This document shows, piece after piece, positions 12,847 to 63,909 of a stretch of 64,000 bases of DNA. The notes below the pieces were generated by a model. It was not told where the DNA came from and made no database searches. It worked only from the letters and a program-made list of their open reading frames with translations. The stretch is from an uncultured virus (IMG/VR IMGVR_UViG_3300043673_000060) (taxonomy: Duplodnaviria; Heunggongvirae; Uroviricota; Caudoviricetes). The DNA is taken from the IMG/VR virus record IMGVR_UViG_3300043673_000060; one strand, 5' to 3'. A program made the translations under genes and the position numbers. The first letter of the stretch is position 1. Each line of letters starts with the position of its first letter.

Positions 12847-12850
12847 AACC

Positions 12851-13360: not shown

Positions 13361-13454
13361 CCCGTGCCCAACCCGAACATCCGGTACTGTCCTAATTTGA
13401 AACCGGGCGCGGCGGTGCGCAGCCTCACCCTAGGTTGCGCGCGAGGAGATCACT

Positions 13455-13763: not shown

Positions 13764-13824
13764 TGGCCGGATTTGAAAATGACCCGACCTAGCCCAGGCA
13801 CGCCGCTCGCCGCACCCTGTCCGC

Positions 13825-14148: not shown

Positions 14149-14152
14149 GCGA

Positions 14153-34436: not shown

Positions 34437-34462
34437 GAACGGTGAGCAAAGGAGTAGACACC

Positions 34463-35978: not shown

Positions 35979-37427
35979 ATGACGACCCCCCGCGAAAGCT
36001 GCTTCCAGGTGCCGGACTTCCACCGGACGCTGCTCGCCGAGTACGCCGTGCAGACCCCCGAGGTCGCGCGCGTTTCGGCGGTGGGCGACGCGAAGGTGGC
36101 CGGCTTCGGCGACGGCTACGTCCCCGAGCTGTACCACCGCCTGTTCGCAGAGTCGCCCAACGAGATCCCCGCGGGCGAGCGCGGCGCGGGCGCTGCGGTG
36201 CGCGGCAAGCTGCACGACCTGGCTAGCGAGCTGCCGGAGTTCTCGACACTGCGTAAGCAGTGCGTGCGCGACCCGCTCTGGGCAGGTATGGCGGCAACGG
36301 CCATCGGCCAGAGCGTCGCGGGCGCCCTCCCGGACCGCCAGCCGGGCGATGCGCCCCCCGATTCCGAGGCCGCGGACCGGATCCTGGACGGCATGCGGGA
36401 CCTTCTGGAGCAGGGCGCGGTCGGCGAGGAGCAGGTTGGCAAGGCGGCCGGAGAGGCGTTCGCGGCGGCCGAGGGCGTGGCTCAGCAAGCCGGCTCACTG
36501 AGCGAGTCGACGGTCCGAAACGCCCTGCGCGGCGCCATCGCGGACGCTCAGGAGCAGATCGACCAGGCCCAGCAGGTCATGTCGGCCATGGGCTGCGGCG
36601 CCGGGACGGGCTCGGGCGGCAAGATGGCTCCCGGCGTCGCCATGGCGCTCGCCCGCAAGGTCAAGAACAGCCGCAAGCTGCAGCAGATCATGGCGCTGGC
36701 TGGTCGTCTGCAGGCCACGGCACGCGCCAAGAGGGCCAGCCGCAGCGAGTACGCGCGGTCCGAGCTGGTCGGCGTCGAGCAGACGGGCGACGTCGCGCGG
36801 CTTCTGCCCTCGGAACTGTCGGCCCTGGGCGATCCGCTGCGCGCTACGGACCTTCTGCGCCGCGTCGTGGAGCGCAACGCGCTCGGCTACAAGCTGCGCG
36901 GCAAGGACAAGGCGGCGAAGGGCCCGATCGTGGTCGCGCTCGACATCTCGGGCTCGATGCACGGCGCGAAGGACACCTGGGGCAAGGCCGTCGCCCTTGC
37001 GCTGCTCGACAGCGCCCGTCGCGACAACCGCGGCTTCGGTCTCATCCTGTTCAACGGCGCCGTGGTGAGCGAGCTGCGCGCCCCGAAGGCCGCTGCGGTC
37101 ACGCCACTGCAGATCCTGGAGCTTCTGGAGCAGGAGCCGTTTGGAGGCACCGACTTCGACGTACCGATCTTCGCGGCCCTCGACTTCGTCGAGAAGCAGG
37201 GCGCGTTCAAGAAGGCGGACGTCGTGCTCGTGACCGACGCGATTGCGCGCCCGGACAGCAATAACACGTCGAAAGCGCGGGCCGACAAGCTCGGGGCGCA
37301 CGTCTACGGGATCCTGATCGGCAGCGGCGGCGAGGCGACGCTGAAGACGTACTGTCACGACGTCGCGAGGATCGACGACGTGAGCCGCGACACGGCGGCG
37401 GTGGATCTGGTGTTCGATCACGTTTGA
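35979..37427 (+). CDS. ViaA-like VWA-domain protein
   Basis: RLLPSEL, GPIVVALDISGSM (MIDAS), GGTDF, VLVTD. Confidence 0.88.
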   Translation: MTTPRESCFQVPDFHRTLLAEYAVQTPEVARVSAVGDAKVAGFGDGYVPELYHRLFAESPNEIPAGERGAGAAVRGKLHDLASELPEFSTLRKQCVRDPLWAGMAATAIGQSVAGALPDRQPGDAPPDSEAADRILDGMRDLLEQGAVGEEQVGKAAGEAFAAAEGVAQQAGSLSESTVRNALRGAIADAQEQIDQAQQVMSAMGCGAGTGSGGKMAPGVAMALARKVKNSRKLQQIMALAGRLQATARAKRASRSEYARSELVGVEQTGDVARLLPSELSALGDPLRATDLLRRVVERNALGYKLRGKDKAAKGPIVVALDISGSMHGAKDTWGKAVALALLDSARRDNRGFGLILFNGAVVSELRAPKAAAVTPLQILELLEQEPFGGTDFDVPIFAALDFVEKQGAFKKADVVLVTDAIARPDSNNTSKARADKLGAHVYGILIGSGGEATLKTYCHDVARIDDVSRDTAAVDLVFDHV

Positions 37428-48796: not shown

Positions 48797-49828
48797 TTAC
48801 GCCCGACGGTAGATCGATGGCGCCGCCCGGATGCGCTCAGCGTCGACGAGCGCTTGGCGGCGGTCGTAGCGCGCGGTCGTGTCTGGACTTTCGTGGCGCA
48901 AGATGCGCTGCACGGTCGCGAGGTCGACGCCGCTCTCTAGGAGGCCAGTGGCCACGGTTCTGCGGCAGTCATGCGGGCTGAACCGGGGCACACCGGCACC
49001 GGTAGCCACGCTCAGGCACAGGTGCTCCAGCCACTTCACGCTGAGCATCTCGCCGCGCGCCGCGCGAGCGTGCTTGGCCCGCAGGAACATCCACGGCAAC
49101 ATCGACGACATTGTCGACCGCGTCGCCAGCCACGCGTCAACGTCCTTCGCGGCGTCCTCGCTCTGCAGCGGCACGACGCTTTCCTTGTCGCCCTTGCCCA
49201 CGAATCGCACGGTGCGCGCGGTCGGGTCGTACGCCTCGACCACGAGGCCGCAGACCTCGAAGGCTCGCAGCGCACCGCCCAGCATCATCGCGAAGCAGCC
49301 GCGCACGAGCGCGCCGTACTCGCCAGCGATCGAATCGACGTAGGCCACGATCTTCGTGCGCTCCTCATCCGGAATGTGGCGCCCGGCCGGCAGACGTGAG
49401 CCGCGCAGCGTCTTGCCCCAGTCCGTGGCCCGCGCGAACTGCTCGTGCGACATGAGACCCATGCGCCACGAGGTCTTGAGGACGCCGCGCAGGGCCACGA
49501 GCGACAGCGACACGGTTGCCGGCCGGTGCTGCTCGCTCAAGCGCTTGCGCAACGTCGTGAACTGGTCCGGCCGCAGCGTCCACCAGGCAGAGAAGCTCTC
49601 CTCGCGCCCATCTGCGCGCGCCGCGCGCCGTAGCGCGTCGTCCATCGTCGTACGGCTCCTGGGGCTCTTGAGGCCGTCCAGGTAGGCCGCCACGGGGTCC
49701 GGTAGGACCTCGACGAGCTGCTCGGGCGCCGCCTTCGCGAGCGTGATCGAGGCGTGATCGACCGAGGCCTCAGAAAGTGAGGTAACCTCGCGGAATTGCA
49801 CGGCTTTTTGGTGTTCTACGTCGCCCAT
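48797..49828 (-). CDS. Tyrosine recombinase/integrase
   Basis: LRAFE, GKGDKE, HDCRRT, LRHESPDTTARY catalytic residues. Confidence 0.92.
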   Translation of the reverse strand: MGDVEHQKAVQFREVTSLSEASVDHASITLAKAAPEQLVEVLPDPVAAYLDGLKSPRSRTTMDDALRRAARADGREESFSAWWTLRPDQFTTLRKRLSEQHRPATVSLSLVALRGVLKTSWRMGLMSHEQFARATDWGKTLRGSRLPAGRHIPDEERTKIVAYVDSIAGEYGALVRGCFAMMLGGALRAFEVCGLVVEAYDPTARTVRFVGKGDKESVVPLQSEDAAKDVDAWLATRSTMSSMLPWMFLRAKHARAARGEMLSVKWLEHLCLSVATGAGVPRFSPHDCRRTVATGLLESGVDLATVQRILRHESPDTTARYDRRQALVDAERIRAAPSIYRRA

Positions 49829-50071: not shown

Positions 50072-52066
50072 TCAATTCCAGCCCGGGTCAGGCTTGGCGA
50101 ATGCCGGGCCACCGAGTTCCCACGGTCGTGGAGCCGTGATGAAGCCGGGGCCGTTGAGTTGCCCGAACGCCGAGCCGACGATCAGATTTGCGCCGCCGCC
50201 GTCGTTCCATTGCGCGGCCGAGGCGTCCCATAGCGACTGCCCAGCGGCCGTAGGTGGTGAGACGTTCAGGTCGTAACGGGCCGAGTAGTTGCCCGGAGAG
50301 AGAGGCGCGCCGAACTGGTAGTCGCGGTTCACCAGGGCGGCGAAGGCCATGGTGCCCGGTACCGCGACGGCAGCGTTGTTGGGATAGGCCGCTGCGAACT
50401 GGCCTGGCGTCTGCCAGCAATGCAGACGACCCATGAAGGACGGCGCCGCGTTGGACAGTTGCGGCACCTGCAATGTCGCCGTGCCGTTGGTGGCCATCGA
50501 CCATGCGGGAACGGAGACAGCTCCCAGGAGGTCGCCGTTGTTGTACAGGGCGCACACGAGAGCCGAGCTGTCGCATGCGAAGACAGTGCGCTGCCACGTG
50601 GCGGCAATGAGGGTGTTGCCCTGCGCAAGCAGCCCCGTCCCCGGATAGCCGCCAAACCCGCCATCCCAGCCAGAGAAGGCGCCCCCGTCGCCCAGCGAAG
50701 GCGGTCCGATGAGGGGCCCCGATCCCGAGCTGCTACCCCACCAAAAAGAGAGCTGCGTCCCGATCTGCGTCAGTGCATACCAGCTCGTGGTCTGGGCCGT
50801 GCCGTACGACAAGATCACGGTCGACGTCGCCGCGCCGCTGGTGAGCGTCTTGGGCAGCCAGTCGACCGCGCAGGCAAAGCTGCCACTGCCGGGCGACATG
50901 CCCGGATCGGTGACGGTCACGTTGTTGAGCGTGGGCGTTCCGAAGTCGAGCGCTCCGGTCGGATACCTCGTCCTGAACAGGCGAGGCCGGACGTTCTGAC
51001 CAATCTGCGGTCCGAAGAGGCGCGGATCGGCGGAAAACAGGTCCGCTAGGCGCAGGCCCCACTCAGATAGGCCTGACACGTACGGATGCACCCCGTCGCT
51101 CTGGTGCTCACCGATGCCCATCCACGACAGATCGAAATAAATCCACGTCTGCCCGAGCGCCGTCTGAGTTGGAATGAAGACGGTCTGGATCCACGCGGCG
51201 ACCGTGCCGATCGTTGTGTTCCACGCCGCCAGGTTGGCGCCCGGCGTGGACCCTGCCGAGAAGGGCATAGGCCCGCAGATGACGACGCGCACGTTCGGGC
51301 ACGTCCCGAAGATCGTGCCGGCCAGCGTCGTGTAGTTGGCCTCCATCTGGGCGGCCGACTGCCCCTGCACGACGTCGTTGGTCCCGATCTCTAGTACGAT
51401 GATGCTCGGGCAGCCGACGCCCACAATCCCAGCACCGGCGTCGCCACCGACGTAGTAGGGGAACGCCGTGTTGATCTGGCTGATCGTGAAGCCGCCGTGA
51501 CCCTCGTGCGCAAAGTTGTGCAGGCCGCCGGCCCCCGACGTCTGGGTGTACTGGGTACCTACGAACTCCCAGTTCGAGCGGCTCCCGGAAAGCCTGGCCT
51601 CGAAGGCAGGTCTCCACGAGCCGGCCTGCTGTGCGGTATCGACGTCCGACGTGATCGTCGTCGAATCACCCATAGGCATGATGGTCACCGAGGTGACCGA
51701 CTGTTGCGGCATTGGTAGGGCGTGCAGCAGCCACTGGCCGCCGATGCCGGCAACCACGGTGCTGCCGTTGGCTGGGCCGCCCGCGTCTGAAGCCGTCCAG
51801 GTGTAGTAGGCGCCGGGAGACTGAACGAAGACCTCGGTACCGACGCTGAGCGTGAGCGTGGGCAGAGTCGCAAGCGCGGTCAGCGTCGATACGGAGATCG
51901 CCGGCCCGACCGCAGCTTTCGGCATAGGGCGTGGCGACGTCGCGTCAAAACCTGCGTCCGATACAGCCGCCTGATCGTCGTGAAAGTGACACGCGACCGC
52001 CTGGAGGGCCGCCAGCAACGTCAGAAACAGTGCCACGCGCGCGAGAAACTTACGCCCCAAGTACAT
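50072..52066 (-). CDS. Signal-peptide protein with SGNH esterase and LamG/ConA-like domains (spike or adhesin candidate)
   Basis: N-terminal hydrophobic helix ending VAC; MPMGDST, HEGHGG, EIGTND, DGVHP; C-terminal WQRTVF...LYNNG. Confidence 0.75.
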   Translation of the reverse strand: MYLGRKFLARVALFLTLLAALQAVACHFHDDQAAVSDAGFDATSPRPMPKAAVGPAISVSTLTALATLPTLTLSVGTEVFVQSPGAYYTWTASDAGGPANGSTVVAGIGGQWLLHALPMPQQSVTSVTIMPMGDSTTITSDVDTAQQAGSWRPAFEARLSGSRSNWEFVGTQYTQTSGAGGLHNFAHEGHGGFTISQINTAFPYYVGGDAGAGIVGVGCPSIIVLEIGTNDVVQGQSAAQMEANYTTLAGTIFGTCPNVRVVICGPMPFSAGSTPGANLAAWNTTIGTVAAWIQTVFIPTQTALGQTWIYFDLSWMGIGEHQSDGVHPYVSGLSEWGLRLADLFSADPRLFGPQIGQNVRPRLFRTRYPTGALDFGTPTLNNVTVTDPGMSPGSGSFACAVDWLPKTLTSGAATSTVILSYGTAQTTSWYALTQIGTQLSFWWGSSSGSGPLIGPPSLGDGGAFSGWDGGFGGYPGTGLLAQGNTLIAATWQRTVFACDSSALVCALYNNGDLLGAVSVPAWSMATNGTATLQVPQLSNAAPSFMGRLHCWQTPGQFAAAYPNNAAVAVPGTMAFAALVNRDYQFGAPLSPGNYSARYDLNVSPPTAAGQSLWDASAAQWNDGGGANLIVGSAFGQLNGPGFITAPRPWELGGPAFAKPDPGWN

Positions 52067-52514
52067 AGCCACCTCCGGATCCAGCATTCAGGTACTTGAG
52101 AACCAGGCCGCGGTACGTCTCTCCCCCGAAGCCGCCGCCCGCCGCTCCACCGAAAGCAAATGAGTTGGTAAACGTGCCGTTGGCCGGAGATGGCTCGGCT
52201 AGCGCTACACCGGGAGGGCCATTGATGGTCACGCCGTTGACGGCCAGGCTCGTGTTGGGGTCCTGGACGATCGTGACCCACTGTGCGACGCCCGCTGTTA
52301 GCGATAGCGGCGGTACGTTGACGACGACCGGGCCCGTAGACGTGTCCACGACCACCGTCTGAAAGGCTTTGGCTGTATACGGGCTGGCCTGCGCCCCGCC
52401 TGTGCCGCCTGAGTTGACCCGGACGACGGCGAGACCGTTTACGACGCGCGAGGCGGCGATGGCCGCCAGCGTGTCCTCGACGGGCTGATGGTGTCCCGAG
52501 CCATGTCCTCTCAT
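52050..52514 (-). CDS. Small beta-rich structural protein with MRGHG.GHH N-terminus
   Basis: PYTAKAFQTVVVDTSTGPVVVNVP resembles fibre-tip modules. Confidence 0.6.
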   Translation of the reverse strand: MRGHGSGHHQPVEDTLAAIAASRVVNGLAVVRVNSGGTGGAQASPYTAKAFQTVVVDTSTGPVVVNVPPLSLTAGVAQWVTIVQDPNTSLAVNGVTINGPPGVALAEPSPANGTFTNSFAFGGAAGGGFGGETYRGLVLKYLNAGSGGGYVLGA

Positions 52515-52548
52515 GTGGCGGAGGATATCAGCGTCATGCGTCCGCCGT

Positions 52549-54432
52549 CTACTCGATGGCGTACGCGTAGGTCGACGTGTCGCCGGCAGCGCCAGTCACC
52601 GTGAATTTTGTCTTGCTCGTAATGCTCACGGTGGGCGCGACCCCAGTGCCGACCGCCGTGACGAGCGTCAGCGCGACCGAGTCCCCACCGAGGTTTGCCG
52701 ATGTCGGCGCGACGATGTCGGGCCATGTGACGTCCACTGGCGTGGCTCCGTTGAGCGTAACCTGGCCGCGACTGATGTGCGCGCCACCAATGTTGGCCCA
52801 GGCGTTGTTGCCGAACGTCGAGAAGTCCACTCCTGGTCCGATGCGGACGGTGGACCCAGACTGGCCGTCCCATCCGATGGTGCCAGCCACACCCGTCCCC
52901 GTTGCATGCACATGGGTCAGACAGGCGACCGCGTTGGCTGCTGCGACGAACGCGCGCGACGCCGTACCGTCCATCTCGACGTGCACGTTGGTGCAATAGG
53001 CGCGTACGCCGCCGGTGCCCATGTTCACGCCGATCCAGCCGTTGGTCGAGGATTGCAGCGATACGTTGGAAAGTCGTGCCTCGTACGCGCCAGCGTTGAG
53101 GAAGATGCCGGCTGCGCTCCCGGTGCAGCCGATGCCCGTCAGGCCATCGATCGCCCCCTCGACGTTGGTCAGCACGTCCTCGACAGAGTTGCCACCGACC
53201 GAACAACCGTTGATCGACCAACCGGGCCCGACAAAAAGAAACCCTGTGGCGTTGCCGATCGACGCGACATTCGTACACGTGGTGCCGGTGGTGGGGCCGC
53301 CAGTAACGTCGTCCCGTACGCCGTATACCGCGTTGAACTTGGTCGATATCGACTGGATCACGGTGCGCGAGCTGCCGCTGGCTACCAGTACTCCGCTGTT
53401 GGAGTTAGAGTTGTAGCTGCCCCCGATGGCCCCGCAGTCCGCGCAACCGATCGAGCCGCCATTGGAGCTGAAGGTGACGCCGATCTGGCAGTTGAACGCC
53501 TCGCAGTCGATCACGTAGCTCGCGTCGGAGTCGTCGATCTCAAATCCGCTACCTGTCGCGTTCTTGACCCGGCTGTTGATCGCTAGGCAGTCCTCGGAGG
53601 AAGCGAGCGAGATCCCGGTGCGCGCCGTCGAGCCCACGTCAACCTTGAGATTACTCACCAGACAATCGCGCGAGCCCAGATCCATGCACACTGCCACGTT
53701 TGCGCTCAGCGATCCGAGCGATGAGTCCACCGTCACGCCGTCGATGACGCAGCGCAGTCCCCCGAACATCTCCCAGTACCTGTCGCCCGTGCCGGTGATG
53801 ACCATGCCGTTGCCGTAGAGGCGGATGTCGGTCGGCTGCGACGTTGTGAGCAGGATCCGGTCGCCAGCCTGCCACTGGTCGATAACCGGCCTGTCCAAGG
53901 TCAGCGTGAATGGCCCGCTGCCGGCCACGTTGGTGACCCGGTAGTAGCGGACGAAGAGGTTGGTCGCGGCGTTCGACAGCTGAATCAGCTGCCCTACGGC
54001 CACCGACGCAGTCGAACTGATCGTCAGGGCGCCGGGCGCGTTGTTGCCGGCCAGGGTCGTGGAGCTGCCTGGCCCCGACAGGAAGACCGGCGCCGCGTAG
54101 AACGTCGTGCTCGTGGCCGTACTGCCGGCCGGCAGCTGCTGGTTGAAGATCACACCCGGCGCGCCCCACATGAGCGTGTGGCTGGGAACCGTCAACGCTG
54201 TCTTGATGAGGTACGTCCCGGCCTGGAACCATAGGCTCTGTCCGGTACCCGCGAGCGTGTTGATGGCAATCTGGATCGCCGGCCCGGCGTCGCTGGCTCC
54301 GGTGTTGTCCACCTTGAACACGGCCACCGCGCTTACGAACGCAGGCGACGAAGTCGCGCCGGCTCCGCTGCTCGCTAACGCGGCGAGCGTCTCGCTGATG
54401 TCCGAGTGATGTCCGACTCCATGTCCTCGCAT
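52549..54432 (-). CDS. Parallel beta-helix (pectate-lyase-like) tailspike candidate
   Basis: DNTGASDAGPAIQIAIN...LWFQAGTYLI start of beta-helix, then repeated N...G strands. Confidence 0.75.
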   Translation of the reverse strand: MRGHGVGHHSDISETLAALASSGAGATSSPAFVSAVAVFKVDNTGASDAGPAIQIAINTLAGTGQSLWFQAGTYLIKTALTVPSHTLMWGAPGVIFNQQLPAGSTATSTTFYAAPVFLSGPGSSTTLAGNNAPGALTISSTASVAVGQLIQLSNAATNLFVRYYRVTNVAGSGPFTLTLDRPVIDQWQAGDRILLTTSQPTDIRLYGNGMVITGTGDRYWEMFGGLRCVIDGVTVDSSLGSLSANVAVCMDLGSRDCLVSNLKVDVGSTARTGISLASSEDCLAINSRVKNATGSGFEIDDSDASYVIDCEAFNCQIGVTFSSNGGSIGCADCGAIGGSYNSNSNSGVLVASGSSRTVIQSISTKFNAVYGVRDDVTGGPTTGTTCTNVASIGNATGFLFVGPGWSINGCSVGGNSVEDVLTNVEGAIDGLTGIGCTGSAAGIFLNAGAYEARLSNVSLQSSTNGWIGVNMGTGGVRAYCTNVHVEMDGTASRAFVAAANAVACLTHVHATGTGVAGTIGWDGQSGSTVRIGPGVDFSTFGNNAWANIGGAHISRGQVTLNGATPVDVTWPDIVAPTSANLGGDSVALTLVTAVGTGVAPTVSITSKTKFTVTGAAGDTSTYAYAIE

Positions 54433-54463
54433 ACTGCCTCGCGCGCGCCGTGTAGAAAGCTGG

Positions 54464-56329
54464 TCAATAGCTTGTCGCCAACGTGTTTGTGCCGTGCGTC
54501 CAGACTGTGGCGAGCGTACCGCCCGCGAGTACGTTCGTGGAGAGGAACGTCGTGGAGCTGGCCGTACCGTTCTTGAAAATAACGCCGAACGTAGCTCCTA
54601 GCGTTACACCGCTCATGTCCAGTTGGAACCATCCGTTGGTCGCGTTGGTGCCGAAGTCTAGTGTGCAATTGGAGGACAGCGTACCGCTCGTGACGATGAG
54701 CCCTGGCGTAACGGCTTGCGCTGCGGTGACGGTCTGCGTGCCGCCCGTTCCGCATGCGATAGTCGCGGCGGTGTCTGTCCACTGAAACGACGTGGTGCTC
54801 TGTCCACCCAGCGTTACGGCGAGATTGAGCGTGTTGGTCCCCCACTGCACCTTCGTGGCGTTGGAGACGGCCAGCACGCCGTTCGCGGTCGAGTTGATCG
54901 TGGTGATTGTGCCGGCGGCGTTGAACTCGATCCCCTCGTTGGTGCCGCTTCGCGCAACCGGCCCCCAGATGGCGCCTGCGGTCGATCCGTTCGACAGTTC
55001 GCCGATCTGGACGTAGTTCGCCCCGCCGCCCTGGCAAACCGACGCGCCTGGCACCCCCGCTCCGTTCGGCGCTGGCGTGTTGAAGTGGAAGTCGCCGGGC
55101 GTATTCGTTCCAGCGGCGAGCGGCCCCTGGGTCTGGTAGAGCATGGCGACGCCGTTGCCGGTCGTCGACGTCTGCTGCGAAATGGTCGGAGTGGTCGTTG
55201 CGGCCGAGAACTGCAACACGTTGGGCGTGATCGGGATGGGTGTTGCACCCGAAATGCCCTCTACCAGACAGTTACCGGACGCGTTGCAGTTGATGTCTCC
55301 ACCAAGTACGCCCGGAATCCAGCTCGTCCCGTTGAAGATCCAGACCTCGGTGCTGGCGTCCCCAGCCAGTACTGTCTGCCCGCGCACGGCGACATTGGTA
55401 TTCGCGTTGGCGGGGCCTGTCGTGTCGCCCGCGAGCGCGATGGAGCCCGCGTCCACAGATGCAAACGTCGGTGTCCACGCCGTGCCGTTGTAGATGAACG
55501 ACTGCCCCGACAGTGGCCCCGCGTCGCTCACCGGCACGGTTTGCAACCGGATGACCGTGCATACGCCAGCGGCCGTGCAGAAGATGTCGCCCGTGTTCGG
55601 CGTCATGTTCTGCGCCGGCAGGATGCCGGTAACGTTCGCGGCGCCCGCGTCGAGGACGAGAATGTTGTTGTTGGCCGGACCAGCCGCGCCGCCTGCGAGC
55701 GTGATCGTCCCGGCGTCGATGATCGACGCGACGAATCCCGGTACCCATGCCGTACCGTTGAAGATCCAGACCTGGCCGGAGGCGGAGCCGGCGCTTACGG
55801 CCTGGTTTTGTACCTCGACAACCTGGTTGTTGTTGCTCGGGCCGATGACGTTGCCGTCGAGCTGCACGACACTACCGCCGCCGCCGCTGCTGCTGCCGCC
55901 GCCATCGAGCTGCGCCGCGATGAGCAGGTAGAGCGCCTGCAGCGACGCGTCCTGGCAGAGACCCGTGCCGGTTCCGCCCTGGGGAATGCTGGCGCCGTAC
56001 AGAGCGATGATCGCCTGCACCGTGGCGTCTTGCGCGAGACCCGTCCCCGTGCCGCCGTGCGCCGCCATCAGCATGGCAGCCTTGAGCCTGTCGGTGTCGA
56101 CGACGCACGTGGAGCCGATCGGAGGAGGCGACGTGGGAGTGAACGCGAGGGAGGACGGGGGCGACGTCGCTGCTTCCGGTTCCGCGTTGCCAGCCGCAGC
56201 GTCCCACGTCCCGGCTTCGACCGGCGCCGGAGGAGTCTTCGAGCACGAGAACGCGGCGCAGGCCGCCATGGTGAGCAGCAAGCCCGCGACCGCAAGCCTC
56301 TTGACGCCCAAATTCACGCTGGCTCGCAT
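54464..56329 (-). CDS. Fibre-like repeat protein with N-terminal signal/TM
   Basis: LAVAGLLLTMAACAAFSC; three (W/F)I(F/Y)NGTxWxP repeats; duplicated GGTGTGLxQDA. Confidence 0.7.
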   Translation of the reverse strand: MRASVNLGVKRLAVAGLLLTMAACAAFSCSKTPPAPVEAGTWDAAAGNAEPEAATSPPSSLAFTPTSPPPIGSTCVVDTDRLKAAMLMAAHGGTGTGLAQDATVQAIIALYGASIPQGGTGTGLCQDASLQALYLLIAAQLDGGGSSSGGGGSVVQLDGNVIGPSNNNQVVEVQNQAVSAGSASGQVWIFNGTAWVPGFVASIIDAGTITLAGGAAGPANNNILVLDAGAANVTGILPAQNMTPNTGDIFCTAAGVCTVIRLQTVPVSDAGPLSGQSFIYNGTAWTPTFASVDAGSIALAGDTTGPANANTNVAVRGQTVLAGDASTEVWIFNGTSWIPGVLGGDINCNASGNCLVEGISGATPIPITPNVLQFSAATTTPTISQQTSTTGNGVAMLYQTQGPLAAGTNTPGDFHFNTPAPNGAGVPGASVCQGGGANYVQIGELSNGSTAGAIWGPVARSGTNEGIEFNAAGTITTINSTANGVLAVSNATKVQWGTNTLNLAVTLGGQSTTSFQWTDTAATIACGTGGTQTVTAAQAVTPGLIVTSGTLSSNCTLDFGTNATNGWFQLDMSGVTLGATFGVIFKNGTASSTTFLSTNVLAGGTLATVWTHGTNTLATSY

Positions 56330-56385
56330 GCGCCCTATCTTACAGCGAGCCATCTCACTGAGCAATCGGGTAAGCTAGCTCGCAA

Positions 56386-59300
56386 ATGCCGCTGTCAAGC
56401 GCGAAATTCTTCGCCAGCAAGTTCCTCACCGACGTCGAGACCGGCGAAAAAGACATCGACACGCCGGCCGAGTACCTGCGGGACCCGCGCGCGACCGTAA
56501 TTGCGAGCGCTCTGCGGGCCCTGGACGTGCACGAGGTGCGGATCCTGGGCTCCGGGTCGTTCGGTACCGCCGCGGTCTACGACGGGCGCAACGTGGTCAA
56601 GCTCACGAGCGACGAGACCGAGGTCATGGCCGGCGCCGTACTCAAGGATGTGGCCGATTTGCCCCACGTGGCCCGGATCTACGGGTCTTGGTTTGTGCAG
56701 GGCGACAACCTGACCGTGGAGCGCTGGGACGGCGACGGGCGCGAGCGTGTGGGCGTTTTGCTACAGGAAAAGCTCAAGCTGGCGACCGATTTCGAGGCGC
56801 GCCCCGTCACCGAGGCCTGGCTGGCCGTACGCGCGGAGTACGGGGTGCACCCCAACAGGCTCGCGGCCATGCCGCCCGGCGACGCCAGGGAGGTCCTGTA
56901 CGCCGCCTCGGTCGCCCTGGAGGCCAGCCTGCGCGGAATGCGCCTCGACATCGCTACGCACATGGCCAGGGCCCTCGCCGAGCTTCGTGGCGTGGGTGTC
57001 TACGCCATCGACGTGCACGGGGGCAACATCGGGGTGAGCCGCGACGGGGTGTTCAAGTTGTTCGACATCGGGTCGAGCAGCTCCCCGGCCCACGTGGAGG
57101 CGCCGGAGCTGCAAGGGGAGGCGGCGGAGGGGGCGAAAGGGGTCCGGCGCCGCGTGTCTGGGACGCCGGCCATGGTCGTGGAGGGGGTGAAGGTGGGAGA
57201 GGTTGGCGGGGGCGGGGGCGCCGCCGAGGACGTCATCCGCGTCGACCACACCATGATCGAGGCCGCCGCTAAGCGTACGGCTGGCCAGTTCGCGCATCAC
57301 CTGCTCGGCGTAGACCTGGAAGGCGACCCGGCGCGCTACTTTTTCGAACGCGCCGACAACCGGCGCAAGACGCCAGACGGCGTCATCGTCATCGGTTCGC
57401 CGCGCATCGAGTTCGGGTACTTCACGCCGTTCACGGTGCCCGAGGAAGAGCGCACGGTGCGCGGGCGCGACCGCATCGAGCGGATCTTTGTGCACCCGGT
57501 GCTCGTGTGGGACCCCGAGAACAAGGAGCTGGTCCTCGGCGGCGGCACGCACGGCCTGAACGTCGCTGGTACCGCGTCGATCTGGGTGCGCGTCAACGCG
57601 GCGTCGCCCGACGCCGTCGAGCTGCGCGACCACCCGGATCGCTTCGTGAAGCGGTTCGCGACGCTTCTGCTTCACGAGTACGCGCACGTCCGCGACTACA
57701 TCCGGCCCGAGGACGTCATCGACCCCGAGAAGCACCGGTACGAGCCTGGCGGCGGATACGATGCGTTCGTGGCGTACTACAACTCGTCGCACGAGGTCCG
57801 CGCCCGTATGAGCCAGGTGGTCTACGAGGTGCTGACCGTCCTGCAGCACGACGCGTTGGGCCCAAAGCTGCGTCACTACGCCGAGCTGCAACGTGACAAC
57901 CCGAACGGGTACCTCGTCGACGCCGCGCTTGCGCGTTCGAAGACGTGGCGACGTGGCGAGTACATCTGGACGCCCGAGAACAAGGCTCGCATCCTGCGCA
58001 CCGTGTACCGCGCGCTGGAGCGAGAGGGCTTGCTCGTGGAGCAGCGGCGGCCGAGGTTGCCCAGGACGCGTCGGTCGATGGCGGCGGAGGGCGATGCGAT
58101 ACCGTCGACATGGTACCACCTGACCGACCGCGCCCGGTTCAAACTGGACCCGAAGTTCGCGCCCAGCGACAACGCGCTCGCGATCGAGGATCGGTCTGGG
58201 CAGCCAGGCATCTACCTGGGCCAGAGCGTGGAGTCGTGGGTCAACGGCTACGGCTACTGGCGCCCGTTCGTCGTCGAGATCAAGGTCGACCCGTCCGTAG
58301 TGAACGATCCCGGCGTGCACGGCCGGTACGGCGGCGAGATTTTCGTACCCGCATCGTCGTTCGACAAGCTCACGATCGAGCGCGTCATCCCGATCGACGC
58401 GTACGCGCGCGAGGAGTACGGCGAGCCGGGCTGGATCGAATCGGCGCTGGGCGTCGAGTTCGACACGGGCGCACCCGTCGAGAAGACGTACCGAGGCTAC
58501 AGGTACGCGGGTCACGATGTGCGCACGATGCCGGCCGACGAGGTGGCCAAGCTGAAGAAGCAGATGAGGCAGGCGAAGCCGCGCGGCGGGGCCCGCGAAG
58601 ACTTCGAGTCCCGCGCCGACGTCTGCGATGACGCGCGCGTCTGGTACCACGGCTCGCCCACCAAGTTCGACGCGTTCCAGGTTCGCGTGGGCGCCCCGTT
58701 CGGCGGCGATCCGATGGCGGTTCCCACCTTCCTAACGTGCGAGTTGGCCACCGCGCGTGCGCACGCAGGCCCGAACGGCTTCGTGTACACCGTCAAGCCG
58801 ACGCCGAAGCGGATCTTCCGTGGTCAGGACCTGTTCCTGGCCGAGTGGCCGAAGTGGTGGCCGCCGCAGCCCGACGAGATGTCGTCGATCGGCGCCCGCC
58901 TGTACGAGGACCTCGAAGCTGGTCGCGTGTTCGACGACGTCCACGGCGAGGAAGCGGACGACGCGCTGCGCGCTATCGCCCGCGGTCACTACGACATCAT
59001 GGAAACGGGCCAGATGAAGCAGTGGCTGCTGTACCACGGGTACGACGCCTTCGTCGTGCGCGAGGCGCCTCGGGCCCCCGTGAGCCTCGCGGTGCTCGAC
59101 CCGAGCCGGCTGAAGATCGTCAGCGTAGAGACGTACGACGAGGCGTGGGCGCGTAGGCGGGAGGTGGCGGAGGCGCCTCGCGTCGACGACGCCGCTCCGC
59201 TCCCCTTCGCCCTCGTCCGCCACGGCGACGACCTCGTCCCCGTCCTTCTCGGCGACGCCGGCTCCGACGAGCTGGTCGGCATCGACGTCGTCAACAACCG

Positions 59301-60336
59301 CGTCCTGAGCTTCGGCGCCGACGCGATCGTCGGCCTCGTGAACGCCGAGCCGGCCGCGGTCTGGTACGGCGTGCGTGCGGAGGTGCAGGGCGACGAGATG
59401 CAGATGGCGGCGGAAGAAGCGACGCAGCCGCTGCAGTCGCGCGAGGTCGCCAACGAGGACGGCAAGCCCGGCGTCAAGAAGGGCGACACCATCCTGCAGT
59501 TCCCCGGCCTGAAGGCACGTAAAGGCCTTCCCTTCCAGGTCCGACCTCGTGGCCAACGCTTCCAGTGGACGCCCGAGAAGCCGCAGGGCCTCACGGCGTT
59601 CCCCGAGGTCAAGAAGGTGCTTATGCGACAGCGAGAGGGCGTGCCGTCGCTGGAGAGCATCCGCATGGCCGCCATCTTCGCGGGCCTGACGGTGCACGCC
59701 GCCACCAGCGAGGCCGAGGACACGTTCGGTCGCGTGGTCGCCAAGTACAAAGCCATGCACGGCGCGATGCCGCCGGTCGAGGAGATCGCGCAAATCATCG
59801 GCACGCACCTGCCGGCCGCTCGGCTGCGCATGTACGAAACGGTCCTGCCGTGGGCCGTCCTCGTGCAGGACGCCATGAAGCGAGGCTTGCGAGACCGCGA
59901 GCTGCGTCGGCACATCTGGGTCGACGTCGTCGAGGACCAGGTCGAGAACATCGGGCTCGCGAAGATGAGTTTCGCCATGATGCTCATGGGCCAAAACGTG
60001 TGCTGCTTGGATACGTGGATGCTGGGCTACATGTTCGCCAAGGACCCAAGCGACGCCGATGACAGGCGTCCGACCGCGGATCGCATCAGCGGCTTGTGGA
60101 AGTGGTCGCCCGCGAAGAAGGGCCGCGAGACGGCGCTGAAGCGCTATGAGCAGGTCGAGGACGCGCTGGTGAAGGGCAACCCGTTCTTCGAAGCCGGTCC
60201 GATCTCGTACGCGCAGACGCAGTGGACGAGCTGGCAGTGGGCCCTTGGTATCCCGGTCGACCATCGACCGTGGCTGGAAATCACCAAGGAGATCCATGCG
60301 CAGGCCGAGTTCCCGAGGCCCGAAACGCCGTTCTAG
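56386..60336 (+). CDS. Modular polyvalent protein 1: kinase - zincin - ART-like - ART-like - small module X - HhH-glycosylase-like
   Basis: GSGSFG/VVKLT/DVHGGN/FDIG; LLHEYAH...HEVRAR; WYHLT..GIYL..GEIF; WYHGSP..TFLT..GYDAF; GLAKMSF..CCLD. Confidence 0.8.
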   Translation: MPLSSAKFFASKFLTDVETGEKDIDTPAEYLRDPRATVIASALRALDVHEVRILGSGSFGTAAVYDGRNVVKLTSDETEVMAGAVLKDVADLPHVARIYGSWFVQGDNLTVERWDGDGRERVGVLLQEKLKLATDFEARPVTEAWLAVRAEYGVHPNRLAAMPPGDAREVLYAASVALEASLRGMRLDIATHMARALAELRGVGVYAIDVHGGNIGVSRDGVFKLFDIGSSSSPAHVEAPELQGEAAEGAKGVRRRVSGTPAMVVEGVKVGEVGGGGGAAEDVIRVDHTMIEAAAKRTAGQFAHHLLGVDLEGDPARYFFERADNRRKTPDGVIVIGSPRIEFGYFTPFTVPEEERTVRGRDRIERIFVHPVLVWDPENKELVLGGGTHGLNVAGTASIWVRVNAASPDAVELRDHPDRFVKRFATLLLHEYAHVRDYIRPEDVIDPEKHRYEPGGGYDAFVAYYNSSHEVRARMSQVVYEVLTVLQHDALGPKLRHYAELQRDNPNGYLVDAALARSKTWRRGEYIWTPENKARILRTVYRALEREGLLVEQRRPRLPRTRRSMAAEGDAIPSTWYHLTDRARFKLDPKFAPSDNALAIEDRSGQPGIYLGQSVESWVNGYGYWRPFVVEIKVDPSVVNDPGVHGRYGGEIFVPASSFDKLTIERVIPIDAYAREEYGEPGWIESALGVEFDTGAPVEKTYRGYRYAGHDVRTMPADEVAKLKKQMRQAKPRGGAREDFESRADVCDDARVWYHGSPTKFDAFQVRVGAPFGGDPMAVPTFLTCELATARAHAGPNGFVYTVKPTPKRIFRGQDLFLAEWPKWWPPQPDEMSSIGARLYEDLEAGRVFDDVHGEEADDALRAIARGHYDIMETGQMKQWLLYHGYDAFVVREAPRAPVSLAVLDPSRLKIVSVETYDEAWARRREVAEAPRVDDAAPLPFALVRHGDDLVPVLLGDAGSDELVGIDVVNNRVLSFGADAIVGLVNAEPAAVWYGVRAEVQGDEMQMAAEEATQPLQSREVANEDGKPGVKKGDTILQFPGLKARKGLPFQVRPRGQRFQWTPEKPQGLTAFPEVKKVLMRQREGVPSLESIRMAAIFAGLTVHAATSEAEDTFGRVVAKYKAMHGAMPPVEEIAQIIGTHLPAARLRMYETVLPWAVLVQDAMKRGLRDRELRRHIWVDVVEDQVENIGLAKMSFAMMLMGQNVCCLDTWMLGYMFAKDPSDADDRRPTADRISGLWKWSPAKKGRETALKRYEQVEDALVKGNPFFEAGPISYAQTQWTSWQWALGIPVDHRPWLEITKEIHAQAEFPRPETPF

Positions 60337-60811
60337 GTGTGGACGCGGACGCGCGATAGGCTCGGTGAAGCGATGACCTGGCTCGCTCTTGCTTTCGCCC
60401 TCCAGCACGCCGACGCCCAGCAACAGCAAGCGGGCTCGCAGTCGATGTCGTCGACCTGGCTCTCAACCGGGAGCCTCGTCCGCCGCGACTGGCACCTCGG
60501 CGTACGTCCGGGGATCGAACTGGACCCCGAGGGCGGCCTGAACTGGGGTCTCGGCCTGACCCTTCAGATCACTACTGACGCGCCCTTCCGCGTACTCAGC
60601 GAAAGTTAGCAATGAGGCTCTTGTTCACTTCCGCAGCGCGCGCACACCCTCCTGCGGCTGCCCGTAGGGGATCGGGGACGAACGCGAGGGCGTCCTCCAC
60701 CGTCTTCACGAGACGGCCTGAGCAGGTCGGCAAACAATACTATTTGTCGCAAAAGTATCGCACCTACAGTTCTGCGCTACTCAGCTACCAGAACTAGGTA
60801 CGCTCGCGGAC

Positions 60812-61057
60812 ATGGGGTACCTGCGGCGGCTTCTTGCCAGGCTGGGTGTTCGTCATGCACCATCGCGCCGCGGTGAGGCGATGATCGAAGAGCGTCCGAG
60901 CGAGCCGAGGTGCTTCCGTCACGATGAATTCGAGAGCGACCCCTCGCTCGTTATGCGTCGCGCGGAGCAGGACGGCTCGGCCCTCATCACCGACGACAAC
61001 GGCAGGCCGAGGATGAGGATCGGCGCCCCGATCGAGCGGCCCCTGGTCGTCGACTAG
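60812..61057 (+). CDS. Phd/YefM-like small protein
   Basis: EFESDPSLVMRRAEQDGSALITDDNGRPRMRI; may start at ATG 60881. Confidence 0.5.
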   Translation: MGYLRRLLARLGVRHAPSRRGEAMIEERPSEPRCFRHDEFESDPSLVMRRAEQDGSALITDDNGRPRMRIGAPIERPLVVD

Positions 61058-61075
61058 CTCGTTCCAGGCCGGGGC

Positions 61076-61327
61076 CTACCGACTCGCCCTGCTTCCGTGG
61101 TCCGCCAGCGGACCCTGCACGGCGAACGGCTTGACGCTCGTCACCGACACGGCCACGAGCTTGCCGGCTCGGTGCTTGTACAGCACGTCGCCGACCTTGA
61201 AGCCGTCGAGATTCTCGTGCGGCGTACCATTCTTGGCGTAGTAGCCCGTGGGGCTCGGCTTGGTGACCGAGGGGGCGGCCTTGGGGATGGGCTGGCGACG
61301 GCGGGAACGGACACTGGGGATGGGCAT
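61076..61327 (-). CDS. Hypothetical protein
   Basis: 83 aa with FKVGDVL beta-barrel-like segment. Confidence 0.4.
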   Translation of the reverse strand: MPIPSVRSRRRQPIPKAAPSVTKPSPTGYYAKNGTPHENLDGFKVGDVLYKHRAGKLVAVSVTSVKPFAVQGPLADHGSRASR

Positions 61328-61563
61328 GTGGATCCGGTAGCGGGGGGCTGCCCAGGGCGCAAGGGCGATGGTAGGCTCGGCGGCGTGGATCTGCTCGACC
61401 GCATGCTCGAAGCCTTCCGGCGCCTGGATTGCGTGACCGTGTGCCAGACCTGCGTAAAGCGCGGCGAAGAGGTGGTCAGCCGAGGGTTTTTCGGGGATCT
61501 GGGGCTCTGCGGACGCTGCCGGAGACCTGCGACGAGCCAGGATGCGGCGTTCTGGGTGCGCGC

Positions 61564-63909
61564 ATGAGCCTCCCCGTCGTTCTCGTGCGCTCCGGTGCCG
61601 ACGTCGTTCCGGTCATCCTGGGCCGGCGGGACAATGAGCTGGCTGGTTACAGCGTCGCTACCGGCCATGTGGTGCCCGTCGACATCGGCATGGTCATCGG
61701 CGCCGTCAACGCGGACCCGGCGGCCGTGTACTGGGGCATGGACCTGGTCGAAGAAGAGCGCGAGCAGCGGGCGGCGGCGGAGGCGGACCGTAGGACGCCC
61801 GAGCGGGTGTCCACTGAGACATATCGGACGTGGCGGATCGAATCGAGACCGTACTCGCATCGTGGCGAGCGCATGTACGAGGCAGGCATCTTCGGTAACG
61901 ACGGGCTTGCGGACGTCGCTCACGGGAAGACTCGCTCGGCGGCTGTCGCGAACGCGCGAGCCATGATCGACCGACACGTGAGCCACGACCGGCTATTGCA
62001 CAATCTTGGTCTGGACGCCGATGCATGGCGAGGCGCCCGCGAAGACCGCTCCACCCCGCTCGCCATCTTCGCCGCCTCTTTCCTCGCCAATGTCGAAGGC
62101 AGCGGCAACCCGCGCCAGTTCCGCAACGATCCGCGCGTGCCGAAGATCGTCGAGGCCCTCGAAACGCTCGGCGTGGGCGAGATCGGCGAGATCCTGGGCT
62201 CGGGAACGTTCGGTACGGCCGCTATCCTCGACGACGACCACGTCGTCAAGATCACCAGCGACCCAAGCGAGGTCCAGGCGGGTCACGTGCTGACGGGCAA
62301 GAAGCTGCGCCACGTCGCGCGCGTCGACGGCGCATGGTTCGTCAAGGGCGTTCGCGCCAAGACGCTCATCGGCAAGATTGACGGCAAGGAGATCCGGCGG
62401 CGTTACCCCACCGGGATCCTCGTCGTCGAGCGCGTGAACGGCCTGGGCGGCAAGGAAACGGAAGACCTTTCGGACCTCGTGAACGACTTCAAGAAGTCCA
62501 ACCGTGTCTACCCGGACCAGCTGGCGAAGCTTTCGCATGCGGACCAGCGCGATCGGCTGCGCAGGGCGTCGCTACGGCTGCAGGACGAACTGGAAGAGAC
62601 GTCGGAGCTGCTGCGTACGGAGCGACGAAGCGACGAAGCGGACCTCGCCGATGGCGTTGCTGGCGCGCTGGACGAGCTTCGTGGGCACGGCGTGTACGCG
62701 ATCGACGTCCACGGCGGCAACGTCGGCTACGTGGAGAGCGAAGGCGGCAAGCGCACGTACAAGGTCTTCGACATAGGCTCGTCGAGTCCGCCCGCGCGGC
62801 CGAAAGCGCAGCCTGTCGACGACGACAGCGCGATGGATCTGGAAGATGCGGGCATACAGCTGGCCTTCTCGGGGATGCTGAGCGAGGCATCGGAGGCGGC
62901 GGGATGGATTGGTGGCGGCGCGGACGAGATGGAGGTGGTGGACGCGGGGGCGGAGGAAACGGATGACGAGCAGGGCTGGGCGCTGGTGAACGAGGATGGG
63001 CAGGCGGTCAACGACGAGCGCTTTGCCACGGATTCGGACGCGTACATGAGCGCGCGCGTCACGTATCGCGGCCCGCGCCGCACTGCCGACGGCAGGCCCA
63101 TGCTGATCGGGCGCACGGTGTGGGTGTCTCAGGTCGACGCGGCCGGAGCTGCTGTCTCGTGGCTCGAAAGCGGCGCGCGCGAGGCTCCGACGACCGCGCT
63201 CGGCATCCGCTTCACCCCCATCGAGAGCGGCGCCTTCGGCGGCGAGTTCCTGACTGGCTTCACCGAAGTCCGTCCGCAGCTCATGAAGCACCGCGAGCAG
63301 ACACCGAGCGTCGAGACAATCATTTTGAGCACCGTTTTCGCTGGCCTGACGGTCCACACGCAGATCGCCACGGCCGAGAAGTCGTTCAAGTGTGTCACGA
63401 ACCGCTTGCGCGGCGGGCGCATGCCGACGCTCGCGGACATCGACGACTGCCTGGTGCCGCTTGGGCTCATCAAGAGCCGTCGAGCGATGTACGAGTCGGC
63501 CGGGACATGGGCGCCGCTCGTGCAGGAGGCCATGAAGAGCGGCCTACGGGACCGGGCGTTGCGGCGCCACCTGTACCTGACGACGGAAACGCCGCACGAC
63601 ATCGCGCTGGCGAAGCTCAGCTTCGTGCTGGCGCTGTTGGGCCAGGACGTTTGCTGCCTAGACGCCCGCATCCTCAACCGCATGTACGAGCGCGAGGAGG
63701 CCAACCGGCTCGCGCACGAGTTCGGCAGGCCGCCGAGCGAGCGCATGCTGGCCAGGTACGAGGCGACAGAGGACGCGTTTCTCGATCACAACGCCTTTTT
63801 CAGACCGAGCGATCCGCTTGGGAGGGCGCGGGCGCAGTGGAATTCGTGGGAGGCTGTTGGCGGCAAGCCTGCGAATCACGCCGTGTGGCTCGGGGTCGTG
63901 AGCGGCTGA
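61564..63909 (+). CDS. Modular polyvalent protein 2: module X - unknown - kinase - unknown - HhH-glycosylase-like
   Basis: GSGTFG/VVKIT/DVHGGN/FDIG; ALAKLSF..CCLD; paralogous to 56386-60336; ATG at 61564. Confidence 0.8.
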   Translation: MSLPVVLVRSGADVVPVILGRRDNELAGYSVATGHVVPVDIGMVIGAVNADPAAVYWGMDLVEEEREQRAAAEADRRTPERVSTETYRTWRIESRPYSHRGERMYEAGIFGNDGLADVAHGKTRSAAVANARAMIDRHVSHDRLLHNLGLDADAWRGAREDRSTPLAIFAASFLANVEGSGNPRQFRNDPRVPKIVEALETLGVGEIGEILGSGTFGTAAILDDDHVVKITSDPSEVQAGHVLTGKKLRHVARVDGAWFVKGVRAKTLIGKIDGKEIRRRYPTGILVVERVNGLGGKETEDLSDLVNDFKKSNRVYPDQLAKLSHADQRDRLRRASLRLQDELEETSELLRTERRSDEADLADGVAGALDELRGHGVYAIDVHGGNVGYVESEGGKRTYKVFDIGSSSPPARPKAQPVDDDSAMDLEDAGIQLAFSGMLSEASEAAGWIGGGADEMEVVDAGAEETDDEQGWALVNEDGQAVNDERFATDSDAYMSARVTYRGPRRTADGRPMLIGRTVWVSQVDAAGAAVSWLESGAREAPTTALGIRFTPIESGAFGGEFLTGFTEVRPQLMKHREQTPSVETIILSTVFAGLTVHTQIATAEKSFKCVTNRLRGGRMPTLADIDDCLVPLGLIKSRRAMYESAGTWAPLVQEAMKSGLRDRALRRHLYLTTETPHDIALAKLSFVLALLGQDVCCLDARILNRMYEREEANRLAHEFGRPPSERMLARYEATEDAFLDHNAFFRPSDPLGRARAQWNSWEAVGGKPANHAVWLGVVSG

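Follow-up and report, generated by a model that had tools for sequence, protein, structure and literature searches.

Polyvalent proteins, as described by Iyer, Burroughs, Anand, de Souza and Aravind (2017; PMC5512222), are polypeptides of phages or conjugative elements that each combine 2 to 15 unrelated effector domains. In the passages of that paper used here, they are predicted to be injected together with the DNA and to be processed proteolytically, and a zincin is proposed as the processing enzyme. Its section 8 characterizes the phage-type metallopeptidase (MPTase) by an HExxH motif, an Asp three residues on and a Glu on the next helix, and names DdrB of bacteriophage P1 as a polyvalent protein that contains an MPTase and is proteolytically processed before packaging. 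In the present study, we examined two neighbouring genes of an uncultured virus of the Caudoviricetes (IMG/VR record IMGVR_UViG_3300043673_000060) in a stretch of 64,000 nucleotides (64 kb; hereafter, the window) of a 121,088-base contig; the searches described below cover this window. The gene products, P1 (56386..60336, + strand, 1316 aa) and P2 (61564..63909, + strand), are polyvalent proteins in the above sense, an already known kind, and a short element of the form G-A-x-E is found at almost every joint between their domains. P1 consists of a kinase-like module, a zincin (MPTase), a WYHLTD module, a VWYHGS module, a module referred to as X, and an HhH-GPD-like domain; P2 consists of X, a module U1, a kinase-like module, a module U2, and an HhH-GPD-like domain. 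Protease subsites are written out below as "subsite P4" and so on, to distinguish them from the two proteins.

Sites of a similar form are known from the head proteases of giant phages. According to the passages cited, gp245 of SPN3US cuts after A-X-E, and the proteases of phiKZ, 201phi2-1 and T4 cut after Glu (PMC10052503, PMC5694885). Among the 14 identified SPN3US sites, 13 remove N-terminal propeptides (PMC10052503, PMC5694885), and T4 trims packaged Alt and its internal proteins after Glu (PMC5694885). As far as these sources extend, the substrates of SPN3US gp245, phiKZ gp175 (MEROPS S80) and T4 gp21 share a short Glu-ended motif with Ala at subsite P3 and any residue at subsite P2; head and ejection proteins carry the sites in their unstructured regions and can have several each. 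T4 Alt and the internal proteins IPI-III, from which gp21 removes a capsid-targeting sequence, are described there as enzyme cargo that is loaded in the head and trimmed after Glu.

P1 and P2 resemble the polyvalent proteins, as presented in the passages of PMC5512222 used here, in having a kinase without a C-lobe and a phage-type MPTase, and in that the same modules occur as small neighbouring or stand-alone ORFs (open reading frames). In contrast, the HhH-GPD-like domain, X, U1, U2 and WYHLTD were not found named in those passages, where the word "glycosylase" has 0 occurrences. Nor do they define a junction motif ("linker" has 0 occurrences, and "cleavage site" occurs in the references only), although the supplements of that paper may show linkers. 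As compared with the head-protease substrates in the sources cited above, the junctions of the P1/P2 clade share the x-A-x-E form and the location in unstructured regions. The differences are that SPN3US sites mostly serve propeptide removal whereas the P1/P2 motif parts whole enzyme domains along the chain, and that the clade has Gly at subsite P4 and Ala or Asp at subsite P1′, as against Val or Ala and Ser, respectively, in SPN3US. Prior knowledge thus covers polyvalent proteins, their proposed processing (PMC5512222) and the A-X-E sites cut by head proteases in giant phages; no description of a conserved motif at polyvalent domain joints was found in the titles, abstracts and passages of the literature searched.

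Architecture of P1 and P2

The two ORFs are present as the first-pass annotation of this DNA had described them, and both are long with strong third-position G+C. The listed ORF of P2 spans 61429-63909 with a TTG start at 61429; homology and the X-first relatives favour the ATG at 61564. That annotation had also regarded the two products as multi-effector polyproteins made of shuffled modules, and BLASTP between them bears this out with three homologous blocks whose order differs: the C-terminal domains (P1 1069-1299 and P2 608-823; 39% identity, E 1e-44), the kinase-like modules (P1 8-283 and P2 213-504; 38%, E 4e-38) and X (P1 939-1012 and P2 48-119; 43%, E 3e-10). A word-indexed search gave 14 relatives of P1, each of them mosaic and covering 12-44% of P1, and a full HMMER search gave 256 proteins related to P2 at E ≤ 1e-3. 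Among the HMMER relatives, each module of P2 (X, U1, kinase, U2 and the C-terminal domain) has stand-alone homologues, which shows that the modular picture is right; each of the six modules of P1 and five of P2 occurs alone or reordered in homologues.

Outside this group, few matches were obtained. No Pfam family matched P1 or P2 at E ≤ 1, including the families derived from Iyer et al. 2017 (ART-PolyVal and the LPD families); LPD23 was a weak lead only (score 0.88, Atlas listing). Likewise, P1 and P2 had no match in PHROGs or in PDB sequence searches, in phage records by megablast, or in plasmids by tblastn. With tblastn, one 66-residue match in a phage record was found. No sequence relation was found to the DdrB/Dar anti-restriction head proteins of bacteriophage P1, which include a processed polyvalent MPTase protein, one short tblastn match being the only return. 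A profile search of PDB with alignment A3 returned only a chance L20 row, and a genome-contig scan with alignment A4 returned no relative.

A short element at the module junctions

Nine junction sites had been listed in the first-pass annotation, and all nine translate as given at their coordinates; eight fit A-x-E, while the ninth is V-A-E. All are on the + strand. In P1, GAAE followed by D (57217..57228; residues 278-281) closes the disordered segment ahead of the zincin and ends 2 residues ahead of its confident fold (283-553). MAAE (58078..58089; residue 565) lies in the disordered stretch behind the zincin (residues 554-599 in the P1 fragment model), and GARE followed by D (58588..58599) parts the WYHLTD and VWYHGS modules. 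The non-canonical V-A-E (59164..59172) is at the junction between the VWYHGS module and X, and MAAE (59404..59415) follows X; in the two-module proteins that consist of X and the C-terminal domain, A-A-N or A-A-E occupies the same column. In P2, AAAE (61771..61782) follows X, GARE followed by D (62032..62043) precedes the kinase, and GAEE (62947..62958) and GARE (63172..63183) stand on either side of U2. At the pre-kinase site, the relatives of P2 have GASE-D, DARE-D or SARE-D.

The positions of these sites were compared with an AlphaFold2 model of P2 (47-row alignment, 781 residues), whose mean predicted local distance difference test (pLDDT) score is 81.8. Confident domains are separated in this model by segments with pLDDT < 50, which occupy 123 of the 781 residues (16% of the chain). 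All four P2 motifs (ORF residues 115, 202, 507 and 582) fall within such segments, at ORF residues 109-125, 194-207, 480-517 and 577-589, respectively, and stand 3-8 residues ahead of the next domain. The domain predictions place the motif at boundaries, as had been proposed: in predicted disordered linkers in P2, and abutting the zincin in the case of P1 GAAE. Matches to [GAM]A[ARE]E number 8 in P1 and P2 together, every one of them at a junction. There are 6 copies of GA.E in P1 and P2 (2,142 aa) and 7 in the other window ORFs (16,349 aa). The consensus of the element in this clade is [G/S]-G-A-x-E-[A/D], placed 2-8 residues ahead of each internal module fold at the end of a disordered linker.

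Enrichment at junctions across homologues

The first-pass annotation had stated that homology edges fall at the motif. For an assessment that is blind to the motif, 163 proteins were aligned all against all by BLAST, and a junction was placed where the homologues aligned 25 residues before a position have the least overlap with those aligned 25 residues after it (a Jaccard minimum). The junctions so defined fall on or beside x-A-x-E in P1 (residues 564 and 736, at MAAE and GARE), in P2 (residue 583, at the last GARE) and in six other inspected proteins, in agreement with that statement. An earlier test by the raw end-points of high-scoring segment pairs was noisy, with a peak of about 2-fold (18% vs 8.7%), and was superseded by the Jaccard minima.

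Motif density was then determined around 272 junctions, using windows of ± 15 residues, in 81 homologues no shorter than 350 aa. For A.E the density is 1.89 per 100 aa in the junction windows and 0.81 in the interiors (2.3-fold); the enrichment is 5.5-fold for [GAM]A[RA]E and 3.4-fold for [GAMVSRH]A.E, as compared with 1.0-fold for A.D, 0.74-fold for A.Q and 0.94-fold for L.E. In 248 non-redundant windows, 500 within-window residue shuffles gave 83.8 ± 7.7 A.E against 130 observed (z 6.0), and 6.9 ± 2.7 [GAM]A[ARSE]E against 32 observed (z 9.4); in neither case did any of the 500 shuffles reach the observed count, and the controls A.D (z −2.7) and E.A (z −0.5) had no excess. Thus, the motif is denser at junctions than in interiors, and beyond what composition gives. 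When all patterns of 3 and 4 residues were counted without bias, GA.E, A.EA, A.E and GARE came out on top; GA.E, the leading gapped k-mer, was found 35 times at junctions and 44 times in interiors in 24 proteins. Junction copies of A-x-E differ from interior ones in having more frequent Gly at subsite P4 (25% vs 7%) and Ala at subsite P1′ (32% vs 15%), and they also favour G or S at subsite P5 and Pro at subsite P4′. A replication set, made of proteins fetched after the motif had been defined, contained A.E at 14 of its 30 junctions (1.82 vs 0.69 per 100 aa), the matches being concentrated in the close clade, in two ORFs of locus L021.

A different linker was observed in P0015, a homologue outside the window. 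This 1841-aa polyvalent protein contains [V/I/A]-E-R-M-[A/E] ten times at a spacing of 115-308 residues, where 0.2 occurrences of "ERM" are expected from composition; its linker looks like another code that marks the junctions of such proteins.

Internal and stand-alone copies of the modules

When internal, at least eight unrelated module families are preceded by the motif. Counted as A.E within 30 aa upstream of the internal copy, it was found for 11 of 14 zincins, 9 of 10 WYHLTD, 3 of 3 VWYHGS and 8 of 8 CxHIQ modules, for 6 of 8 U1, 5 of 5 U2 and 3 of 3 ParB-like modules, and for 17 of 37 kinases, 5 of 8 X and 14 of 58 C-terminal domains; the background for a 30-aa window, estimated from the interior density, is about 20%. 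In many of the C-terminal-domain proteins, the A-A-N/A-A-E column lies more than 30 residues upstream of the counting anchor.

The WYHLTD module allows a direct comparison between the two states. A metagenome scan for it gave 39 loci, in many of which it has an ORF of its own, 166-204 aa long. A.E is absent from all 13 distinct leaders of the stand-alone ORFs but precedes 9 of the 10 internal copies (Fisher p about 1e-5), and the stand-alone ORFs end (...LKKQLRQVKG) exactly where P1 goes on with GARE. The motif therefore belongs to the joint and not to either module. As a separate observation, some stand-alone WYHLTD proteins (L022, L023 and L027) carry a 36-residue, extremely basic N-terminal leader rich in Ser, Arg and Lys, and other copies carry a leader of about 20 residues with an amphipathic look; these leaders may be alternative targeting signals.

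Features of the individual modules

The kinase-like module of P1 (56386..57090, + strand; aa 1-235) contains GSGSFG, VVKLT, DVHGGNIG and FDIG and then stops, without a C-lobe. Its homologue in P2 (62050..62865, + strand) was matched by Foldseek in PDB to PknB, APH(2'')-Ia and PINK1 with a probability of about 1, at E values of only 3e-3 to 1e-2, and in BFVD to phage kinases. The residues for ATP binding and phosphotransfer are intact, the C-terminal subdomain is absent and a disordered linker follows directly, as in kinases of the polyvalent type.

The zincin-like module (57232..58044, + strand; P1 aa 283-553) is the only part of P1 residues 236-1075 that was modelled with confidence. With HEYAHVRD at residue 430, an Asp at +3 of HExxH and a downstream HE, it fits the phage-type MPTase of PMC5512222 section 8, and "NSxHExRA" is conserved downstream of HExxH in all homologues. 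Fold searches added little: Foldseek was uninformative, and VIA-align gave helical rows with Z ≤ 5.9 and weak HExxH-domain rows with Z 4.0-4.4. A complex prediction that paired the zincin domain with a 39-residue linker from P2 scored 0.00, which we count neither for nor against binding.

The next two modules of P1, WYHLTD (58099..58587, + strand; aa 572-734) and VWYHGS (58600..59160, + strand; aa 739-925), had been labelled "ART-like" in the first-pass annotation, and these labels could not be confirmed. Neither has a Pfam match, and the AlphaFold2 models of both are of low confidence. In hhalign, WYHLTD and ART-PolyVal gave a probability of 0.06 with only a Y-H-x-T stretch aligned; in the related loci L046 and L031, proteins encoded nearby do match the ART-PolyVal family of Pfam. 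The VWYHGS module was seen in 3 proteins only, with A.E before it in all 3.

X is a small all-beta domain (59194..59394, + strand, aa 937-1003 in P1), modelled at pLDDT 76-90 in its P2 copy; it is N-terminal in 26 of its 34 occurrences. U1 (61804..62007, + strand; P2 aa 126-193) has a confident fold and stand-alone homologues in P0102, P0125 and P0137, and U2 (62974..63156, + strand; P2 aa 516-576), which was poorly modelled, has a stand-alone homologue of 67 aa in P0129. The C-terminal domain, AKMSF ... CCLD in P1 (59533..60285, + strand) and found in P2 at 63196..63906 (+ strand) by BLASTP, alignment and Foldseek, is glycosylase-like, with the predicted features of the HhH-GPD DNA glycosylase superfamily. 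The P2 copy resembles the 8-oxoguanine glycosylase/lyase of M. jannaschii (3knt; TMt 0.63, probability 1.0, E 8e-3 in Foldseek). An invariant Lys and Asp, K140 and D156, stand 16 residues apart in the 23 sequences of alignment A1, and this pair may correspond to Lys120/Asp138 of EndoIII. The superfamily is characterized by a helix-hairpin-helix and by a Lys with an Asp about 16-18 residues downstream.

Possible functions of the junction element

The same signature is borne by at least eight unrelated modules, its neighbouring positions vary, and modules without the motif exist and fold; these facts point to selection on a recognition element. Starting from the observed architecture and motif placement, we infer the further steps of cleavage, scissile bond, packaging and protease. 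Chains of unrelated effector enzymes would be assembled from exchangeable cassettes, a protease acting in trans would cut after the Glu of each junction element, and one translated chain would give separate enzymes, in the capsid or after injection. The likeliest enzyme would be the head-maturation protease of the phage element itself, by analogy with the giant-phage A-X-E sites, T4 Alt and the internal proteins. We hold it to be rather probable that the element is a processing site of whatever enzyme, and consider the chances evenly balanced that it is specifically an endoproteolytic site cut after Glu by a trans-acting protease; processing by the head protease is plausible at somewhat less than even chances. 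A trans-acting enzyme is implied by motif-rich proteins that contain no zincin, namely P0006 (9 motif matches), P0008, both ORFs of L021 (with no zincin in 20 kb) and P2 itself, from which it follows that an own zincin cannot be required in cis.

Several observations weigh against a processing site of this kind. A.E is present in only 100 of the 248 junction windows, where 72 are expected, so that the motif is clade-specific and not universal, and the distant lineages L045, L046, L049, L055 and L056 join their modules without it. Linkers are generally rich in G, A and E (E.A is 1.6-fold and G.E 1.8-fold enriched at junctions), A-x-E also occurs within modules, as the first-pass annotation had itself cautioned (8 times in P1 and 3 times in P2), and the internal copies counted per module are related sequences and not independent events. 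With regard to the enzyme, that annotation had linked the motif to the Glu-specific head proteases of T4 and phiKZ: the form of the motif does match the sites of the giant-phage enzymes, whereas no prohead protease was recognised in the 64-kb window by general PHROG and Pfam scans (81 window ORFs, 122 ORFs of the distantly related contig G002 and 108 ORFs of related loci), and in the window, G002 and the related loci these scans recognised no capsid, portal, terminase or protease gene either, apart from the protease of L044 described below. The contig, at 121 kb, is not that of a jumbo phage, and no protease of S77/S80 type or head gene was recognised in the window. PF03420 was absent from G001 and G002; the same search matched no control genome either, and its negative therefore says little. 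Finally, P1 adjoins lipoprotein-like and depolymerase-like genes, not recognisable head genes.

Among the alternatives, the one closest to the proposal of Iyer et al. 2017 is that the sites are cut by the zincin of the polyvalent proteins themselves, in cis in P1 and in trans in P2, before packaging or after injection. The zincin of P1 is apparently intact and has the motif on both of its flanks, and the adjacency of P1 and P2 would permit action in trans; L024 repeats the two-gene layout with a zincin in one gene, and in L002 (the same contig as G002) a zincin-like ORF adjoins an X and C-terminal-domain gene. The zincin-free, motif-rich relatives listed above speak against this explanation. 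Zincins usually select the residue after the cut, subsite P1′, whereas here the conserved positions are subsites P4 to P1, and subsite P1′ can be A, D, E, G or T. We therefore regard cleavage by the zincin as unlikely. Somewhat more weight, at a level that is still doubtful, can be given to a motif that is never cut and is either a conserved piece of flexible linker moving along with its cassette or an element that acts in docking or as a hinge, and that marks recombination points. Homology breakpoints do coincide with the motif, linkers abound in G, A and E anyway, the same modules are joined without the motif in other lineages, and some polyvalent proteins (N4 vRNAP, ArdC and TraC1; PMC5512222 section 8) are delivered uncut. 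Nevertheless, the motif exceeds the composition of its windows (z 6-9.4) while E.A and A.D do not, it is borne by at least eight unrelated modules, and subsites P4, P2 and P1′ vary with the partner while the A and the E stay, as selection on a recognition site predicts. The role of shuffling boundary, which the first-pass annotation had also assigned to the motif, is supported only in so far as the breakpoints coincide with it; in the DNA, no sequence is shared beyond the motif codons.

Two further explanations deserve brief consideration. The junctions might be remnants of gene starts left after fusion, or internal translation starts: the P1 junctions include two M-A-A-E and one V-A-E, with M and V from ATG and GTG, the modules occur as separate genes elsewhere, and the P0015 linker V-E-R-M-A recurs ten times. 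However, the nine sites read in the window have no Shine-Dalgarno-like sequence ahead of the ATG or GTG, at most junctions and in orthologues the residue there is G, R, S, A or H (e.g., RS-M/V/R-AAE), and the stand-alone WYHLTD genes do not begin with the motif. The lack of a Shine-Dalgarno sequence and of DNA identity beyond the motif codons makes both leftover starts and a DNA repeat unlikely, and the ideas of vestigial starts and of DNA microhomology were rejected on reading the DNA of the nine sites; start remnants are in our judgment very improbable. Chance occurrence is less credible still. A-x-E is a frequent triplet where proteins are rich in Ala and Glu, as in this genome of 66% G+C (Ala 11% and Glu 7.5% in each of P1 and P2), and occurs inside modules as well, yet the shuffles, the control triplets, the contrast between stand-alone and internal copies, the replication set and the low rate in the other window ORFs all disagree with such an origin.

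Returning to processing after Glu in trans, a broader scheme may be put forward tentatively from the sequence patterns. G-A-x-E might be a junction code with two roles, as the site of a trans-acting Glu-specific maturation protease and as the standard boundary of exchangeable cassettes; X might be a capsid-targeting handle, and other lineages might use other codes, e.g., V-E-R-M-A. Under such a code, an enzyme gene inserted between two sites would have its product carried in the capsid and set free as a separate enzyme, and X, usually N-terminal and then followed by A-A-E or A-A-N, would draw the whole chain into the head. X could in this respect act like the targeting leader of T4 Alt and the internal proteins, as described in the cited passages, but it is a folded domain of about 65 residues as compared with a peptide of about 10 residues, and the likeness is conjectural.

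Genomic context

The window has a G+C content of 66%, and its recognisable genes are of the mobile-element type (replication, integrase and methylase). The replication genes are an O-like initiator (4080-5123) and a DnaB-like helicase (5964-9149, + strand), which contains an intein with a LAGLIDADG homing endonuclease (Pfam DnaB_C, Intein_splicing and LAGLIDADG_3). A 780-aa protein (14153-16495, − strand) in which an HSDR_N-like N-terminus is fused to an N6 DNA methylase and a type I specificity domain (Methylase_S) looks like a single-chain restriction-modification enzyme or an orphan methylase. A MoxR-type AAA ATPase (34442-35674, + strand) of the bpMoxR family, known from MoxR-vWA-beta-propeller conflict systems, is followed by a vWA protein (35979-37427, + strand); the MoxR and vWA pair is also present in G002. 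A pentapeptide-repeat protein and a tyrosine integrase (48797-49828, − strand) are also encoded. Directly upstream of P1 are three large Ala/Gly/Thr-rich proteins (50072-56365, − strand): one has a GDSL-lipase domain, one is pectate-lyase-like, and one, of 633 aa, has a lipoprotein-like signal peptide (…LLLTMAAC…). They may be tail, depolymerase or surface proteins.

Relatives of P1 and P2 are found on IMG/VR viral contigs, two records of which encode proteins of the form X-[A-A-N]-C-domain. The distantly related G002 (116 kb) shares MoxR, vWA, pentapeptide, GDSL and DnaJ-like genes with the window and also carries endolysins, RecE/YqaJ, RuvC, ThyX and DnaB. From these shared genes and the phage genes of G002, the element is probably a temperate phage of large size, from a group about which little is known.

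Some observations were also made in related loci. In G002, a small ORF with HExxH (…ILSHEFGHAVDF…; 11145-12014, − strand) adjoins the X and C-terminal-domain gene and has amidase, M23 peptidase and tail-fibre-like genes nearby. The distant contig L044 (160 kb, 48% G+C; 1057-1785, − strand, and 5300-6130, + strand) has the WYHLTD module only as a stand-alone gene, which lies at most 9 kb from a head-maturation protease (phrog_18299, E 8.5e-49) and a virion structural protein. Among the scanned loci, this protease is the exception to the lack of recognised head proteases, and BLAST with it matched nothing elsewhere. In L001 (about 12000-14850), a 182-kb viral record, a run of repeated DNA lies 1.5 kb downstream of the gene for an X and C-terminal-domain protein, with a recurring peptide in all frames; it adjoins a 596-aa protein of TnpB/Cas12-like look, and the repeats may be a phage-borne CRISPR-like array.

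Implications for polyvalent proteins

Polyvalent proteins are regarded as the earliest that a phage delivers against host defences; for the conversion of a giant chain into working enzymes, the 2017 description offers a conjectured zincin. The junction motif gives the exact residues at which this could take place, so that in this clade the processed products would be predictable from the sequence. It also suggests that phages may exchange their effector enzymes as cassettes. Should the cutting be done by the head protease, the reach of the A-X-E rule would extend from the jumbo phages to a group of high-G+C phages of about 120 kb, and its role would extend from propeptide removal to the dissection of a polyprotein. 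The glycosylase-like enzyme, which would be injected, the truncated kinase and the uncharacterized modules are candidates for new anti-defence activities.

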